DNA of 64,000 nucleotides from an uncultured Acidobacteriota bacterium (GCA_963810355.1 CAWENU010000032.1:15641-79640); one strand, 5' to 3'. Counted from the first letter of the stretch, positions 10,940 to 64,000 are shown. Program-made: numbers and translations. The notes: a model not told the origin generated them from the sequence alone.

Positions 10940-11048
10940 TGCGAACGATCGAGCGGTGAGAGTCTACTACGTTGGATTTGAGGTGCCATGTATTTGACTG
11001 CGTGGCCCGCCGTCGAGCCATTGGGTTGCGAACGTGCGACTGGGTGGG

Positions 11049-11145
11049 ACCCCTCCCCCTGGTTTTTTGTAAGTATTCATTCTAAAGGCAGTTAAAGTCC
11101 CTTGTTTTGATAAACTTTTGCAAGTGTTCATTCCAGGGCACTTAC
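11049..11145. repeat. AT-rich ~97-bp dispersed repeat with tandem TAAGT..ATTCTAAAG..GTTA units
   Basis: Aligns along its length with 62128-62222. Confidence 0.85.
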
Positions 11146-11186
11146 GGACCGTGCCTGGAGCTACAATTTCCTCCCAAACTGGAAGT

Positions 11187-11215
11187 AGCCTACCGAAGCT
11201 TAATTGCTGCGTCAA
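11187..11215 (-). promoter_or_regulatory. Sigma70-like promoter associated with the repeat
   Basis: Minus TTGACG-N17-TAGGCT-ACTTCCAGTT; counterpart of 62308-62336. Confidence 0.65.
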
Positions 11216-57545: not shown

Positions 57546-60500
57546 ATGAAGGAAACCAAACCGATTCAGAAACTCCTCGCCGCCAACCGCAGCGAAATTG
57601 CTATCCGCATCTTTCGCGCGGCCAACGAACTGGGACTGCGCACGGTCGGCATCTACTCGCAGGAAGACCGTCTCGGCCTGCACCGCTTCAAGGCGGATGA
57701 GGCGTATCAGATTGGCGAGGGTAAAGGGCCGGTCGAGGCTTATCTCGATATCGCCGGAATCGTTGCGCTCGCCAAGGAGAAAGGCGTCGACGCGATCCAT
57801 CCGGGTTACGGATTCCTCTCCGAGAATCCCGCCTTTGCGCGCGCTTGCGAGACGGCCGGGATCACCTTCGTCGGACCCACGCCGAGCTCTCCTGGAATTG
57901 CTTGGCGACAAGACTGCCGCGCGAAGGCTGGCGGCTTCCGCCGGCGTGCCCGTGCTGCCGGGCACCGAAGATCCGGTCGAGTCAGCCAGCGAAGCGCAAA
58001 GGATCGCGGCGGAGATCGGCTATCCCGTCATCGTGAAGGCCGCGATGGGCGGCGGCGGGCGCGGCATGCGCGTGGTGCGCGATCGCTTCGCAATTGGCGG
58101 CGTTGCTCGAAGAAGCGCAGGGCGAGGCGCGCGTCCGCGTTCGGCAACGCCAGCGTGTTCCTGGAGAAGTATTTGCCGCGCGCCCGCCACATCGAAGTGC
58201 AGATTCTGGGCGACCAGCACGGCAATTTGCTGCACTTCTACGAGCGCGATTGTTCCGTGCAGCGGCGCCATCAGAAAGTCGTCGAAGTCGCGCCCGGCGG
58301 CGAATCTCGCCGTCCAGCATTCGCAACGAGTTGTGCGAAGCCGCTGTCCGTCTCGCTCGCAAAGCCGACTACCGCAACGCCGGTACCGTTGAGTTCTTGT
58401 ACGACGTGGATGCGCAGCAAGTGGTACTTCATCGAAGTCAATCCGCGCATCCAGGTGGAACATACCGTCACCGAAATGGTCACCGGCATCGACCTCGTGC
58501 GCTCGCAGATTCTCGTCGCGCAAGGCCATTCGCTCCACGATCCGCCGATGTCGCTGCCGCGCCAGGAGAACATCCCGCTTTACGGCGCAGCGTTGCAGTG
58601 CCGCGTGACCACCGAAGATCCCGAGAAAAATTTCGCGCCCGACTACGGAAAGATTTCCACCTATCGCTCTCCCGCTGGCTTCGGCATCCGTCTCGATGGC
58701 GGCACGGCCTACGCCGGAGCGGTGCTCGCCGCGTACTACGATTCACTGCTGGTGAAGGTGACCGCCTGGGGCCAGCACCTCCCCGAAGCCTGCCACCGCA
58801 TGGACCGCGCCCTGCGCGAGTTCCGCATCCGCGGCGTGAAGACCAACATTCCCGTTCGTCGAAAACGTCGTCAATCACCCGAAATTTCGCGCCGGCGAAA
58901 TCACCACATCGTTTCTGGATGATTCGCCCGAATTGTTTCGCTTTCCGAGCCGCGGCGACCGCGCCACCAAGTTGCTCTCGTACCTCGGCGACGTGATCCT
59001 CAACGGCAATCCCGAAGTCAAAGGCAAGAAAGTACCCGAAGCGTTGGAAGCTGCCGTGCTCCCCTGCCACGCCGGGTATCGAACCGCCGCCGGGCACGCG
59101 CCAGCTGCTGCAAAGACTCGGCCCCGAAAAATTCGCCGCCTGGGCCCGCAAAGAAAAGCGCCTGCTGATCACCGACACCACCTTCCGCGACGCGCACCAA
59201 TCCTTGATGGCAACCCGCGTCCGCACCTACGACATGCTCGCCACCGCCAGCGCCGTCGCCCAGCGCCTGCCCAATCTCTTCAGCCTGGAAATGTGGGGCG
59301 GCGCAACCTTCGACACTGCCCTGCGCTTCCTGCACGAAGATCCCTGGCAGCGTCTCCGCGAACTGCGCGAGCGCGTTCCCAACATCTGTTTCCAGATGTT
59401 GCTCCGCGGCGCAAACGCCGTCGGCTACGCCTCCTATCCCGACAACGTCATCGAGGAATTCGTCCGCGAATCCCCCGCGCAGGGCATCGACATCTTTCGC
59501 ATCTTCGACTCCCTCAATTCCATTGCCAACATGCGCGTCTCCATCGACGCCGTGCTCGAAACCGGCGCGGTCTGCGAAGCCGCCATCTGCTACACCGGCG
59601 ACATGCTCGACGCGTCGCGCCCGAAATATTCCCTTCGAATACTACGTTTCGATGGCCAAGCAACTGGAAAGGCTGGGCGCGCATTTCCTCGCGATCAAAG
59701 ACATGGCCGGCCTCTGCAAGCCTTACGCCGCTCAGAAGCTCGTGAAGGCGCTGCGTGACGAGGTCGGGATTCCCATCCACTTCCACACCCACGATACCAG
59801 CGGCATCAACGCCGCCTCGCTGCTCAAAGCTTCCGATGCCGGCGTGGACGTCGCCGACGCCGCCATCGCCTCGATGAGCGGCGGCACCAGCCAGCCCAAT
59901 CTCAACTCCATCGTCGAAGCCCTGCGCCACACCCCGCGCGACACGCAGCTCGACATCGACGCGCTCAACGAATGCTCCGACTACTGGGAAGTTGTCCGCA
60001 CCTACTACTTGCCGTTCGATTCCGGCCCCAAAGCCGGCTCCGCGCGTCTCTACCAGCACGAAATTCCCGGCGGCCAATATACCAACCTGCGCGAGCAGGC
60101 CGCCGCCATGGGTCTCGGCCATCGCTGGCGTGAAGTGGAAACCACTTACGCCGAAGTGAACCAGCTGTTCGGCGACATCGTGAAAGTCACGCCGTCCAGC
60201 AAAGTTGTCGGTGACATGACGCTGTTCCTGATGGCGAAAGACATGCGCCCGCAAGATCTGCTGAAGCTCGACGAAAAACACGATCTCTCGTTACCCAACT
60301 CTGTCGTCGAAATGTTTTCCGGCGTCTTAGGCGTTCCGCCGGGCGGCTGGCCAAAAAAGCTGAAAAAAATAATCCTCCGCGGCGAAGATCCCATCAAAGG
60401 CCGTTCCAGCGCCAGCATGCCCGCGGCAGAATTCGACGACGAACAAGCCGCGCTCGAGAAAAAGCTCGGCCATAAAATCGAACGCGACGCGCTCCTCAGC

Positions 60501-61013
60501 TATCTTCTCTATCCCGACGTGTTTCTCAAGTACGACAAATTCCGCCAAACCTACTCCGACGTCAGCGTCCTCCCCACGCCCCCGTTCTTCTACGGCCTGA
60601 AATCCGGCCAGGAAATCACGGTAGATATCGAGCCCGGTAAAACGCTGATCGTCAAATTCCTGACCAGCAGCGACCCGCACCCCGACGGCACTCGCACGCT
60701 CTTCTTCGAACTGAACGGCCAGCCTCGCGAAGTCAACGTCCGCGACCGCGCCCTCCGCGTCGTCGAGCGCGCTCATCCCAAAGCCGACCCCGCCGAGCCC
60801 GGCCAGGTCGGCGCTCCCACCGCCGGCGTGGTCTCCGGCATCGCCGTCCAGCCCAATCAAACCATCGAGCGCGGCGCAAAACTTCTAACCCTCGAAGCCA
60901 TGAAAATGCAATCCAACATTTACGCCACCATTTCCGGCCGCGTCGCCAAACTCCTGGTCACTCACGGCCAGCACGTCGAGGCCAAGGATCTCCTGGTGAC
61001 CATCGTTCCGTGA
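57546..61013 (+). CDS. pyc: Pyruvate carboxylase with about eight or more frameshifts (probably sequencing errors)
   Basis: ANRSEIA, HPGYGFLSE, RDCSVQRRHQK, RDAHQSL, EMWGGATFD, IKDMAG, HTHDTSG, EAMKM spread over changing frames. Confidence 0.93.
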
Positions 61014-61023
61014 GCCTTTTCTC

Positions 61024-61806
61024 GTGAGTTCCGGCCAATTTCGCAAACACAGTCAATTCCGCTCGCGCTTCCTTCGCAACCAGCGCGATCTCATCATCTA
61101 TCTCCCACCGGGCTACGACGAGCAACCCTGGCGCAGTTTTCCGGTCCTCTATCTCCAGGATGGCCAGAATCTTTTCGACCGCGCCACTGCCTTTGCGGGC
61201 CAGGACTGGAACGTTCAAGGCGCCGCCGATTACCTCATCCAGGGCGGCGCCATCGAACACCTCATCATCGTCGGCATCTACAACACCGGCAAATCCCGCA
61301 TCCACGAATACACCCCCACAAAAGTTCCCAAGCTCGGCGGCGGCCGCGCCGACCGCTACGCCAAGTTTCTCCTGCAGGAAGTCATGCCCTTCGTGAACCA
61401 ACAATACCGCGCGCTCCCGGAGCCATCCCAAACCGGCATCGGCGGCTCCTCCTTAGGCGGACTGGTATCCTTATACTTCGGCCTCAAATATCCACAGACC
61501 TTCGGCAAAATTGCCGCGCTCTCCCCCTCGGTCTGGTGGAATCAACGCGCAATCCTGCGCTTCGCCGCGGAAGCCACCCCGCAACCCCGCCCTAGCATCT
61601 GGCTCGACATCGGCACCCGCGAAGGCCCCCGCATAGTCCAAGACGTAGAACAATTTCGCAACATCCTCCTGCAAAAAGGGTGGCGCGAAGGCGAGGACCT
61701 CCACTACGAACGCGTCGAAGGCGCCGAACACAACGAAGCCGCCTGGTCCCAACGCGTAGGCCCCTTCCTGCAATTCCTCTATCCAGCCGCCGCGACCAAA
61801 GCATAA
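61024..61806 (+). CDS. Putative esterase (alpha/beta hydrolase)
   Basis: YLPPGY, DGQNLF, GGSSLGG, HNEAAW. Confidence 0.9.
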   Translation: MSSGQFRKHSQFRSRFLRNQRDLIIYLPPGYDEQPWRSFPVLYLQDGQNLFDRATAFAGQDWNVQGAADYLIQGGAIEHLIIVGIYNTGKSRIHEYTPTKVPKLGGGRADRYAKFLLQEVMPFVNQQYRALPEPSQTGIGGSSLGGLVSLYFGLKYPQTFGKIAALSPSVWWNQRAILRFAAEATPQPRPSIWLDIGTREGPRIVQDVEQFRNILLQKGWREGEDLHYERVEGAEHNEAAWSQRVGPFLQFLYPAAATKA

Positions 61807-61886
61807 TCCGCCAGGTTCTCCGGACCCGCGAAGCCGCACCGTTGTCGCGAAGCCACGCCGTTATCGCGAACCCGCGCCGTCCCATC

Positions 61887-61981
61887 GTAGGGGCGGGGCT
61901 TGCCCCGCCCGGCCGTTGCGTCTTGACGCCAACCTTCCGATCGCCGCTCGATGTTGTAAGGGCGCAGCGCACTGCTGCGCC
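61887..61981 (+). repeat. Two REP-like hairpins
   Basis: GTAGGGGCGGGGCTTGCCCCGCCC and GTAAGGGCGCAGCGCACTGCTGCGCC. Confidence 0.7.
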
Positions 61982-62031
61982 GCAACTCGGCAAGATCGCT
62001 CCCTAAGACGCGACCAAGCGCATAAAAATGT

Positions 62032-62463
62032 GCTGAGTGTTGGTTTGAGGTCCTTCGGCTATCCTTGTCGGATAGCCTCAGGATGACGGCGTGTCGCCGG
62101 TTGAAATCGAAGCGTTACCATCAGGTTACCCCCCCCCTGCTTTTTTGTAAGTGTTCATTCTAAAGGGAGATAAAAGCCTTTGTTTTGATAGAGTTTTGCA
62201 AGTATTGATTTTAAATGAGTTAGGTGAATCGCTTCCTGGGACAATCTGGGCAAAAGAAAAGGCGGCTCTTGGCCGCCGCTGTTGTTGCGCACTTTTAACT
62301 GGTTAGTAGCTTACCTTAAAGTGATCTACTTGTCAAGGAATACTTACAAAAAAACAAGGGGGCGCGGTATCCTGATCGTAACGCTGCGATTCAAGCAGCA
62401 ACATGCTGTCATCCTGAGGCTATCCGACAAGGATAGCCGAAGGACCTCAAACCAATACTCAGC
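62032..62463. repeat. 432-bp element with ~125-bp imperfect inverted arms
   Basis: 62032-62156 is the reverse complement of 62338-62463; the outer 56 bp differ at one position. Confidence 0.9.
62252..62302 (-). ncRNA. Candidate ~50-nt small RNA inside the inverted-repeat element
   Basis: TTGACA-N17-TAAGCT at 62336-62308, then a GGCGGC-CAAGA-GCCGCC-TTTTCTTTT terminator; no ATG ORF. Confidence 0.55.
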
Positions 62464-62538
62464 GCGCAATCGTCCCTCATCGCCGCCCCCACTTTCCCTT
62501 GACCTCCCACTCCACCCTGCGGCATCGTGTCACCGCAC

Positions 62539-63745
62539 ATGTCGCAGCCTCGCCCCCAAACGATTCTCTGCGTGACCTCCTACGAAAAAGGCCAGGAATT
62601 CCTGCGCACCTGCAAAGCCCTGGGTTGCCGCGTGCTCCTCCTCACGGTGGAAAAGTTCCGCCACGGCGACTGGCCCCTCGACTCCATCGACGAAATGTTC
62701 TCCATGCCGGAAGAACTGCCCGCTCCGGCATCTGATCTACTCGGTCAGCTACATGGCGCGCTCCACCCATCGACCGCATCGTCGCCCTCGACGAATTCGA
62801 CATGGATAATGTCTCTGCCCTCCGCGAACATCTGCGCCTCCCCGGCATGGGCCTCACCACCGTGCGCTATTTCCGCGACAAACTAGCCATGCGCACCCGC
62901 GCCAGGAAGCAGGCATCCTCGTCCCGGAATTCGTCCACGTCCTCAATTACGACGATCTGCGCGGAATTCATGGCGCGCGTGAACCCGGCCCATGGCTCTA
63001 AAACCCCGCTCGCAAGCTTCCGGCATCGGCATGAAAAAGATTCACGACCCGTCCGAGAACTCTGGCCGCTGCTCGATCAACTCGGCGATCAGCAATCCTT
63101 CTATTTGCTCGAGCAATTCATCCCCGGCGCTGTATTCCACGTTGACAGCGTGGTCTCCGAGCGCGAGAGCGTTTTCGCCGAAGCCCACGCCTACGGCACC
63201 CCGCCGCTGGATGTCTCCCACCAGGGCGGCGTCTTCACCACGCGCACGCTGCCCCGCGAAGCCTCCGAAACAAAGCGCTGCATAGAAGCAATCGCCAATT
63301 AATCGAAGGCCTGGGCTCTGTCCGCGGCGTTACCCACGCCGAATTCCTGCGTTCCCACGCCGACGGCAAATTCTATTTCATAGAAATCGCCGCGCGCGTG
63401 GGCGGCGCGTACATCGCGGACGTCGTCGAAGCCGCCACGCGGAATCAATCTCTGGCGCGAGTGGGCTCGCCTGGAAGTGCGGTGCAGGGAACTCCATACA
63501 CTGCGCCAGCCAGCGCAACGATTATGCGGGCGTCATCCTGTCCTGGCCCGCCAGGAAAAACCCGACACCACCGCCTACAACGATCCCGAAATCGTCTATC
63601 GCGTCAACAAATACCACCACGCCGGCTTCGTCGTGAAGTCCCCAAGCGCGGAACGCATCGCAGGAATTGCTGCGACTCCTACGCCCAGCGCTTCCAAACC
63701 GATTTCCTGGCCACGCAACCAGTCCCAGAAAGACCCACCGCCTAA
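62539..63745 (+). CDS. ATP-grasp domain protein, multiply frameshifted
   Basis: CVTSYEKG, FRDKLAMR, LKPRSQASGIG, LEQFIPG, THAEF, F.EIAARVGGAYI across frames. Confidence 0.8.
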
Positions 63746-63754
63746 AGAAAAAGG

Positions 63755-63935
63755 ACGAAGCAACGAAGTAATGAAGTAAAGAAGTAATGACACAACGAAG
63801 TGCGGGGCGAGGCCCGCGCGGCGCCCGAAGCCGGCCGCTTTATCCGCGCACCACCTAACGCCTCGGCAACTCGCGATCTCTTTCGAGTGAGTTTTTTCGT
63901 TACTTCATTACGTTGTTACTTCATTACTTCTTTCT
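63755..63935. repeat. Inverted pair of 8-bp tandem repeats
   Basis: About six units like ATGAAGTA/ACGAAGTA at 63755-63802 and about five units like TACTTCAT at 63896-63935. Confidence 0.8.
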
Positions 63936-64000
63936 TTGTTCCGAATAGAAAGCGAAAGTCTGTCCCAAGGTCCAGTAACTTTCTCGCAACAGCCCCACAC

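Follow-up and report, generated by a model that had tools for sequence, protein, structure and literature searches.

A promoter-bearing inverted repeat in an uncultured Acidobacteriota bacterium, probably a rearranged copy from an apparently undescribed family of intergenic modules without coding function

The DNA considered here, a stretch of 64,000 nucleotides from an uncultured Acidobacteriota bacterium (GCA_963810355.1, CAWENU010000032.1:15641-79640; hereafter the window), carries between two genes an inverted repeat of 432 bp (62032-62463) that encloses a putative promoter and a terminator. Almost nothing is known of the non-coding repertoire of uncultured soil Acidobacteriota, abundant as these bacteria are. 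The element lies in the interior of its contig, away from the ends, and forms an AT-rich island with a GC content as low as 0.36 in surroundings of 58% GC. It is flanked by an esterase gene (PF00756) and by an ATP-grasp-like gene, the latter recognized from sub-threshold ATP-grasp matches of its orthologue in the relative G042 and interrupted by frame breaks in both genomes; the adjacency of these two genes recurs in 59 of 60 other genomes sampled from the genus. The flanking bases read AAAATGT on the left and GCGCAAT on the right, with no direct duplication by reading. On the evidence below, the element is probably one rearranged member of a large family of non-coding intergenic modules, turned round and partly duplicated in the genome that harbors it (G000).

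Inverted arms of about 125 bp had been proposed in the original prediction, which was made from the sequence of the window, and such arms are found at 62032-62160 and 62335-62463, identical at 113 of 127 positions (89%) in a pairwise alignment. A repeat search resolves them into two sub-pairs, 62032-62105 with 62390-62463 (74 nt, 92% complementary) and 62132-62159 with 62335-62362 (28 nt, 86%), which BLAST merges into arms of about 128–130 nt (87%, E 3.4e-37). The left arm is made up of a hairpin, H, resembling a repetitive extragenic palindrome (REP; 62045-62087, stem TCCT..GGCTATCC / GGATAGCC..AGGA at 62051-62083), about 40 nt found at this locus only (62088-62128), and part of an AT-rich core, namely its C-run, T-run and last box. 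This arm continues into the complete core, which lies on the minus strand at 62122-62223, belongs to subfamily 1 of the family described below (nhmmer E 2.3e-26, model positions 11-112), and reads on that strand CTAAC..TTTAAAATCAATACTTGCAAAA.., ..TTTAGAATGAACACTTACAAAAAA, then a G-run. The right arm holds the last box, A-run and G-run only (62337-62376, model positions 7-46), again followed by about 40 locus-only nucleotides and by H (62407-62450); it would be the arm in the ancestral position. The end of the AT-rich repeat is thereby present in each arm, as had been noticed.

The centre likewise reads as predicted, all of it on the minus strand: a sigma-70-type promoter, identified by reading, at 62308-62336 (TTGACA at 62336-62331, a 17-nt spacer, TAAGCT at 62313-62308), a segment of 25 nt at 62278-62302 between the predicted start and the terminator, and an intrinsic terminator hairpin at 62261-62277 (GGCGGC-CAAGA-GCCGCC, then TTTTCTTTTG at 62260-62251), which is also terminator-like in a scan and is kept in the relatives G042, G059 and G261. 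The 25-nt segment varies among copies of the family and is conserved among orthologues. A start near 62301 is predicted, from which an RNA of about 50 nt would run to the terminator. Promoter, short non-coding stretch and intrinsic terminator, the marks of a small-RNA gene, are thus all present at the level of sequence and kept in three orthologues. No credible open reading frame (ORF) had been seen in the element, and this stands: five ORFs of 41–97 aa overlie it, none with a Pfam match. Rfam covariance models run over 61000-64000 returned a chance-level match only (E 0.57), and a 58-nt RNA from the locus folded no better than its shuffles (z -0.77).

The composition of the element was examined by cutting it into pieces and searching each by BLAST against the whole 4.48-Mb G000 assembly, which is rated 60% complete. 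The centre-right piece with promoter and terminator (62226-62340) has a single match, itself, whereas the AT-rich piece has 61 matches; the arm pieces have about 30 each, all owed to the hairpin of 43 nt. The stretch of roughly 40 nt that separates hairpin from core in each arm is found at no other place in the assembly. The inverted repeat is therefore a composite of two dispersed repeat families and locus-only sequence, not an element with terminal repeats. This bears directly on the proposal of a non-autonomous element with ends of about 125 bp, that is, a miniature inverted-repeat transposable element (MITE) carrying a promoter in the manner of Correia elements. Long terminal inverted repeats, a length of 432 bp, the lack of an ORF, and its status as an insertion relative to most congeners would all suit such an element. 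However, neither the arms nor the centre have a second copy in the assembly, other members of the AT-rich family lack inverted ends, each arm is a mosaic of two independent repeat families, a target-site duplication is absent from the flanks, and the orthologues, described below, are one-armed. A classical MITE is, on this showing, scarcely credible. Nor was an autonomous partner found in the assembly, incomplete as it is: no inverted pair of cores encloses a gene, and the Y1 transposase genes are not flanked by copies.

Hairpin H has the consensus GTTGAGGTCCTTC-GGCTATCC-TTGTC-GGATAGCC-TCAGGATGACA and occurs in 28 genomic copies, 25 of them distinct. Its interrupted stem of 12 pairs shows changes on both sides in 7 of the 12, with non-pairs in 5 of 300 cells. 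H behaves as a REP element: a short extragenic palindrome in many copies whose stem is kept by compensatory changes. A covarying hairpin had been claimed for each arm; the hairpin is there, and the covariation lies across the 28 copies, not between the two arms, whose stems are identical in sequence. The GTAG or CGTC tag, borne by the REPs that are the subject of PMC3733652, is absent at the end of H. Copies of H also form tandem arrays, with three identical copies 226 nt apart at C8:17525-18020 and five within 900 nt, at a spacing of about 153 nt, at C4:481568-482465; by BLAST, the H of each arm is 100% identical over 43–44 nt to those in the C8 array. A transposase of the RAYT kind was considered as a partner and rejected, as none of four Y1_Tnp matches is flanked by copies, the nearest H copies lying 2–3 kb from one of them; across the genus, the distribution of the one Y1 gene tested does not follow that of the family, as it occurs in 6 of the 10 genomes with the family and in 5 of the 14 without it. 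In a separate observation, three solo fragments (C27:60614-60666, C9:194350-194396 and C13:158787-158846) consist of the G-run/A-run end of the core with one box only and in this resemble the right arm; the end in question could be a module separable from the rest or a point where breaks are common.

The history of the locus can be followed in relatives. Among 18 syntenic loci, the gap between the two flanking genes is at most 59 nt in 12 and 116–215 nt in 4, compared with 488 nt in G059, 693 nt in G042 and 720 nt in G000, and the module is present at the measured syntenic loci of G042 and G059 only. A probe of the unique centre detected 4 of 260 genomes of the genus, namely G000 itself, G042 (92%), G261 (83%) and G059 (75%), plus one match of 23 nt. 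G042 and G059 agree in their arrangement, in which the flank is followed by the promoter, about 25 nt, the terminator, the core, the G-run, a further 40 nt or so, hairpin H and the ATP-grasp-like gene's own upstream region; the unit lacks the left arm and points towards the ATP-grasp-like gene, opposite to its orientation in G000. G261 carries the unit downstream of the esterase in the same direction as G042 and G059, with a truncated core and no inverted repeat. In a metagenome contig from a relative at about 90% identity, 62140 and 62406 are joined with a change of strand, again the single-arm form, and several other contigs represent the empty site. A search of sequencing runs for the stretch listed no RNA run, and the best DNA run shares a fraction of 0.09 of the sampled words; the contigs aligned come from relatives and repeats only. 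Compared with these, the G000 locus has the entire unit as its reverse complement and, after it, the last 128 nt of the unit once more in direct orientation. Since three sister genomes have a single, oppositely oriented unit with no left arm beside the same esterase gene, two of them with both flanking genes, the inverted repeat is read as a lineage-specific inverted duplication, whose arms would be a by-product and not functional ends. The two G000 arms are 89.0% identical to each other, while the left arm is 88.9% and the right arm 86.5% identical to that of G042; because identities within G000 and to G042 are so similar, the duplication would be old, of roughly the age of the split from G042. 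TTGACA is the same in all four genomes, the -10 hexamer is TAAGCT, TAAGAT, TAAGAT and TAATGT, the spacer has changed at many positions, and 5–6 pairs of the terminator stem are kept. That hexamers and stem persist while the spacer drifts suggests that promoter and terminator are under constraint.

These comparisons also bear on an active invertible promoter, which had been offered as one reading of the element and in which recombination between the arms would flip the promoter-terminator cassette towards the esterase or the ATP-grasp-like gene, giving phase variation. A promoter is indeed enclosed by inverted repeats, the centre stands in opposite orientation in G042, G059 and G261, and the hairpin segment of about 43 nt common to the arms could allow rare homologous inversion. 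Yet the sister genomes have no left arm and so cannot show this switch in its alternative state; homogenisation of the arms has not taken place, 14 of 127 positions (11%) being different; the genes on either side are those of an esterase and an ATP-grasp-like protein; and, although the genome has 17 tyrosine (PF00589) and 4 serine (PF00239) recombinase matches, none is on contig C32. Such a switch is accordingly judged quite improbable. It is still less probable that the duplication is false, created by a fold-back chimera during assembly. Frame breaks in at least two nearby genes do point to limited base-level quality, but the 14 substitutions or indels between the arms go far beyond residual read error, the element is inside the contig, and both flanks are collinear with those of 59 of 60 other genomes of the genus; the divergence of the arms had been advanced as an argument against such an artefact, and it holds.

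The preferred reading, that of a rearranged module, gains its meaning from the family to which the AT-rich core belongs. A profile search of the G000 assembly with nhmmer gave 91 matches, 81 of them near full length (E < 1e-5), including a second copy in the window with its core at 11042-11145 on the minus strand (E 5.7e-27). Read in the direction opposite to the plus strand of the window, the consensus core starts with CTAAG.., then TTTAGAAT-SAACACTTGC-AAAAG, continues with TCTATCAAAACAAAC, ACTTTAAC and TTTAGAATGAACACTTAC-AAAAAA, and ends in a G-run (GGGGGAGGGG) that is frequently followed 5–10 nt on by GTTAAC. Each core has two or three TTTAGAAT boxes in tandem; in subfamily 2 there are three boxes of the form TAACTCC-TTTAGAATCCGCACTTAC-AAAA with a period of 39–40 nt. 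In other genomes the number of boxes rises to about 5–6, and some boxes there are followed by their inverted complement to form a hairpin, as in a few G000 copies (palindromic doublets). Of 24 other genomes of the genus that were searched, 10 contain matches to the family, as against none of 16 that represent two further families of the order. In public genomes, a 19-mer of the box was matched exactly in at least 115 stretches, the majority titled Acidobacteriota or Candidatus Acidoferrum / Acidiferrum and several otherwise. The family is limited to part of one genus of uncultured soil Acidobacteriota. A literature search returned no description of this AT-rich repeat family, and in Rfam the best match of 18 subfamily-2 loci (E 0.042) fell under the gathering score. 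The 81 copies occupy 31 convergent, 20 divergent and 30 co-directional spacers, where 18.6% of spacers genome-wide are convergent. With respect to replication polarity, in 39 of 59 copies the presumed transcribed strand lies opposite the G-rich one, a weak bias from which nothing is drawn. Near some copies (C16:87380-87440, and upstream of six copies of subfamily 2) a further repeat type is seen, composed of GGGTGSCCC, a hairpin with a GGTTTTTG loop, and GGGTCTTGGGGTT.

Promoters were scored in the 250 nt 5' of each core (maximum score 12.5), with 2138 intergenic strands as controls. Scores of at least 9.5 were reached on the sense strand by 42 of 81 copies and on the antisense strand by 9 of 81, compared with 101 of the control strands (4.7%); at a threshold of 10, the corresponding figures are 32 of 81, 1 of 81 and 1.9%. 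By subfamily, the threshold of 9.5 was reached in 17 of 44 copies of subfamily 1 and 25 of 37 of subfamily 2. The -10 box lies a median of 118.5 nt from the core. Subfamily 2 has its promoter inside the conserved element, at a fixed 113–131 nt from the core in 19 copies, whereas in subfamily 1 the leader between promoter and core varies from copy to copy in both sequence and length; across the family leaders measure 40–190 nt. Terminator-like hairpins are present in 13 of 81 leaders on the sense strand versus 8 of 81 antisense, and after the core in 7 of 81 versus 13 of 81. As the antisense controls give 8 and 13, a terminator in the leader or beyond the core is not a general feature of the family, and that at 62261-62277 is one of the clear cases. 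The promoter and start signature of the element had been reported to recur near 11178-11215, and the pattern TTGAC-N17-19-TARGCTACT-N1-2-CCAGTT has exactly two matches in the assembly, both on the minus strand: 62297-62336 and 11177-11215, the latter belonging to the second copy (TTGACG, a 17-nt spacer, TAGGCT, then ACTTCCAGTT); the reversed pattern, used as a control, has none. The general arrangement that had been surmised, a promoter and a variable segment ahead of a conserved module with no protein gene attached, is accordingly borne out by the 42 sense promoters, whereas a shared start signature is confined to these two copies.

Several observations on individual copies may be recorded here. 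The subfamily-2 promoter, for example that upstream of C11:71086-71174, is located within a near-palindrome, GATTACCAA..TGTTATC / GTGTTATC..AGTAATTC, which spans the -10 box and the predicted start and might be an operator. At one orthologous site (C11:43291-43700 in G000, L180:1331-1700 in G042) promoter and flanks are homologous, while leader and core have been replaced; the replacing box variant consists of CTTTAGAATCA[G/C]ATCGTTGC twice, then an A-run and a G-run, and the difference looks like a cassette-like swap behind a retained promoter. At 7 of 23 alignable G042 loci (L182, L187, L190, L197, L199, L200 and L201), the alignment to G000 passes to the other strand, to another contig or across kilobases at no more than a few hundred nucleotides from a copy, a count that has no matched control. 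One rearranged locus has a 1.27-kb inversion (C16:87487-88760), the ends of which are without inverted repeats.

The coding potential, structure and conservation of the core were examined as well. Open frames over the core are inconsistent in phase and extent among copies, and codon periodicity is absent (column entropy by phase 0.64, 0.57 and 0.57). The G-run was considered as a Shine-Dalgarno sequence and discarded, since a start codon follows within 3–14 nt in 25 of 81 copies versus 37 of 81 at a control offset. Nor do the C-run and T-run make an intrinsic terminator on the opposite strand, with 5.2 of 14 nt of the C-run paired versus 6.1 in shuffles. RNAalifold predicted 0 pairs for the core (28 copies) and 0 for the subfamily-2 leader. 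Conservation was assessed in the 15 best-matching copy pairs between G000 and G042, the nearest sampled relative, at least one of which is perhaps not orthologous. Identity in these pairs is 92.1% in the core, compared with 76.8% in the leader, 80.6% in the G-run region and 86.8% in the 70 nt beyond; in the same loci, coding sequence gives 91.8% and alignable intergenic DNA away from the copies 85.6%. Paralogous copies within G000 are about 75–87% alike. Because orthologues (92%) are closer than paralogues, homogenisation by conversion does not explain the conservation of the core.

It is at this point that mosaic repeat DNA without host function, selfish or neutral and comparable to BIMEs or BOX elements, has to be weighed; its promoters would be incidental or carried along, and the locus would be a rearrangement hot spot. 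The restriction of the family to part of a genus, its enrichment in convergent spacers (31 of 81), the variable number of units (2–3 here, about 5–6 at most elsewhere) with palindromic doublets among the copies, the alignment breaks next to 7 of the 23 alignable loci of G042, and the presence of other REP families in the same spacers all agree with such an origin. Against it, the core is held between species at an identity like that of coding DNA while neighbouring non-coding DNA is not, orthologues are closer to each other than paralogues are, the promoters are strand-specific and about tenfold enriched over controls, and no transposase partner was found, the RAYT-like Y1 genes not flanking copies. 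Repeat DNA without function is therefore regarded as unlikely, though a good deal less so than a switch.

Some known types of system were tried and rejected. A CRISPR array is at odds with the stretch between the boxes, which is itself conserved between copies, and with a period of 39–51 nt. A type III toxin-antitoxin system of the ToxIN kind does not agree with the genes downstream, which differ among copies and are convergent in 43 of 81; a search for ToxN (PF13958) gave no match, but its control was equally silent. Targets had been suggested for the variable segment, and a guide with a genomic or viral target was tried on this account. The 25-nt segment (62302-62278) has no second site in the assembly at up to 3 mismatches and is in this sense unique, as had been described, a 21-nt part of it has no exact match in viral contigs, the boxes are not found at up to 4 mismatches beyond 300 nt of family copies, and the 19-mer of the box has no exact match in viral contigs; a guide with such a target could not be upheld.

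Taken together, the findings favor the view that the element is one rearranged member, flipped and partly duplicated, of a large and apparently undescribed family of non-coding intergenic modules, and this is considered probable. Its footing is the observed anatomy, the copy numbers, the orientation in relatives, the lack of coding or RNA-fold signal, and the higher conservation of the core; transcription, RNA length, binding function and the order of events are added to it conditionally. In the ancestral state, a single module would have lain 3' of the esterase gene, in the same direction and, where the ATP-grasp-like gene follows, towards that gene, with the order promoter, about 25 nt, intrinsic terminator, core, about 40 nt and REP-like hairpin. 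In G000 the whole module would then have been turned round, while its distal 128 nt (last box, 40 nt and hairpin) also stayed in place as a further copy, from which the inverted repeat would result. A typical family member, in its presumed orientation of transcription, would comprise a sigma-70 promoter near consensus (in about half of the copies), a variable leader that changes fast between species and differs among copies, and a conserved, A-rich, G-poor, unstructured core of two or three tandem boxes (TTTAGAAT, about 10 nt and an A-run), then a G-run and often GTTAAC. Most likely, the promoter at the centre of the element makes a terminated minus-strand RNA of about 50 nt, and the box array, which read-through would carry, serves as a sequence-specific platform for protein binding. 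Given that the promoters point into the array strand-specifically, the array is more probably read as RNA than as DNA.

Several points weigh against this account. In a promoter scan of 61800-62600 no promoter-like site was called, as the -10 hexamer matches at only 3 of 6 positions, and in subfamily 1 strong promoters are confined to the 17 of 44 copies given above. The terminator of the element stands between promoter and core, so that the core here is possibly untranscribed, and elsewhere, with post-core hairpins no commoner on the sense strand than on the antisense strand, a defined 3' end of a core-bearing RNA is missing. As for conservation, the intergenic baseline comprises alignable DNA only, and an AT-rich core could mutate more slowly if mutation were biased from GC to AT. 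Finally, arm divergences by themselves do not decide whether an arm was duplicated on the way to G000 or lost elsewhere, and the order of events follows from parsimony over three single-arm genomes.

A bolder proposal goes beyond this. The roughly 80 loci might constitute a new class of modular bacterial RNA genes, each with its own sigma-70 promoter, a fast-evolving 5' specificity segment (a guide, decoy or antisense) and a conserved, A-rich, unstructured 3' module of tandem boxes that would recruit a sequence-specific protein, the leader-plus-core cassettes being swapped behind a retained promoter, as at the C11 site, and re-oriented, as at 62032-62463. This is doubtful, and it is put forward as a speculation of low probability.

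The spacer and its neighborhood have some further features. A GTAG-tagged REP-type palindrome, GTAGGGGCGGGGCTTGCCCCGCCC, lies at 61887-61910 in the same spacer as the inverted repeat; soil-metagenome contigs accumulate on it (summed depth about 1900 in two runs), and similar hairpins adjoin other copies of the family. Right after the stop codon of the esterase gene, at 61827-61883, there are three tandem units of 19 nt (CGCGAAGCCGCACCGTTGT and variants) that are 74–100% alike. A pyruvate-carboxylase-like gene is split over the overlapping frames 59204-59758 and 59523-61013, and the ATP-grasp-like gene (62527-63302) is similarly split over overlapping frames, its G042 orthologue losing the frame after about 230 aa. 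The split genes are probably due to assembly indels, which would also account for the low completeness estimate; with such indels probable nearby, homopolymer lengths in the element (C-run and A-run) are not reliable to the base.

For annotation, the lesson is that the inverted repeat at 62032-62463 is to be taken as a local rearrangement of a module, not as a transposon or a switch. The family itself is unusual among intergenic repeats, in that its core is kept about as well as coding DNA, has no predicted fold and is preceded in about half of the copies by a strong promoter directed towards it. Should the boxes bind a protein, in the form of either RNA or DNA, the family would point to a layer of regulation or chromosome organisation peculiar to this group of bacteria.

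Likenesses to known systems are partial. BIMEs, REP clusters and REPINs of Proteobacteria are likewise extragenic palindromes in tens of copies with compensatory changes, as in hairpin H, they form mosaics with other motifs in spacers, are enriched between convergent genes and, as with some of the boxes here, include inverted doublets; unlike them, the core of the present family is mostly non-palindromic and has no fold, H is without a GTAG or CGTC tag, no RAYT gene was found to flank the copies, and half of these have a strong promoter. BOX elements of Streptococcus pneumoniae are built as boxA, boxB(n) and boxC, and their ends pair into a stable fold. They too are modular intergenic repeats without an ORF, in around a hundred copies, whose tandem middle units, each about 40–50 nt long, vary in number, but the family described here lacks the pairing of ends, is unrelated in sequence, ends in a G-run and frequently has promoters of its own. 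Correia elements (CREE) of Neisseria, in which every copy has defined terminal inverted repeats and a TA target duplication, are small intergenic repeats as well, with promoter elements able to alter the transcription of neighbours; in the AT-rich family, by contrast, inverted arms exist at one locus only, and there is no duplication. The ToxI RNA repeats of type III toxin-antitoxin systems share the plan of a promoter followed by tandem AT-rich repeats of 36–51 nt without an ORF, but no toxin gene comes after the repeats of the present family, whose downstream genes vary by copy. Switches of the fimS type resemble the element in having a promoter between inverted repeats and opposite orientations in related genomes; they differ in that no recombinase is nearby here, the arms are about 128 bp long and 11% diverged where fimS-type repeats are short and exact, and the relatives are one-armed. 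The last comparison is with families of sibling small RNAs, such as the NsiR1 arrays and Yfr2 of cyanobacteria and Qrr of Vibrio, which have 2–12 members and a terminator hairpin after the conserved part. The AT-rich family differs from these in its roughly 80 copies, and it is like them in consisting of many small units with their own promoter, a variable part and a conserved single-stranded motif; the locus at 62032-62463, with its putative promoter, about 50 nt and a terminator, would fit the same plan.

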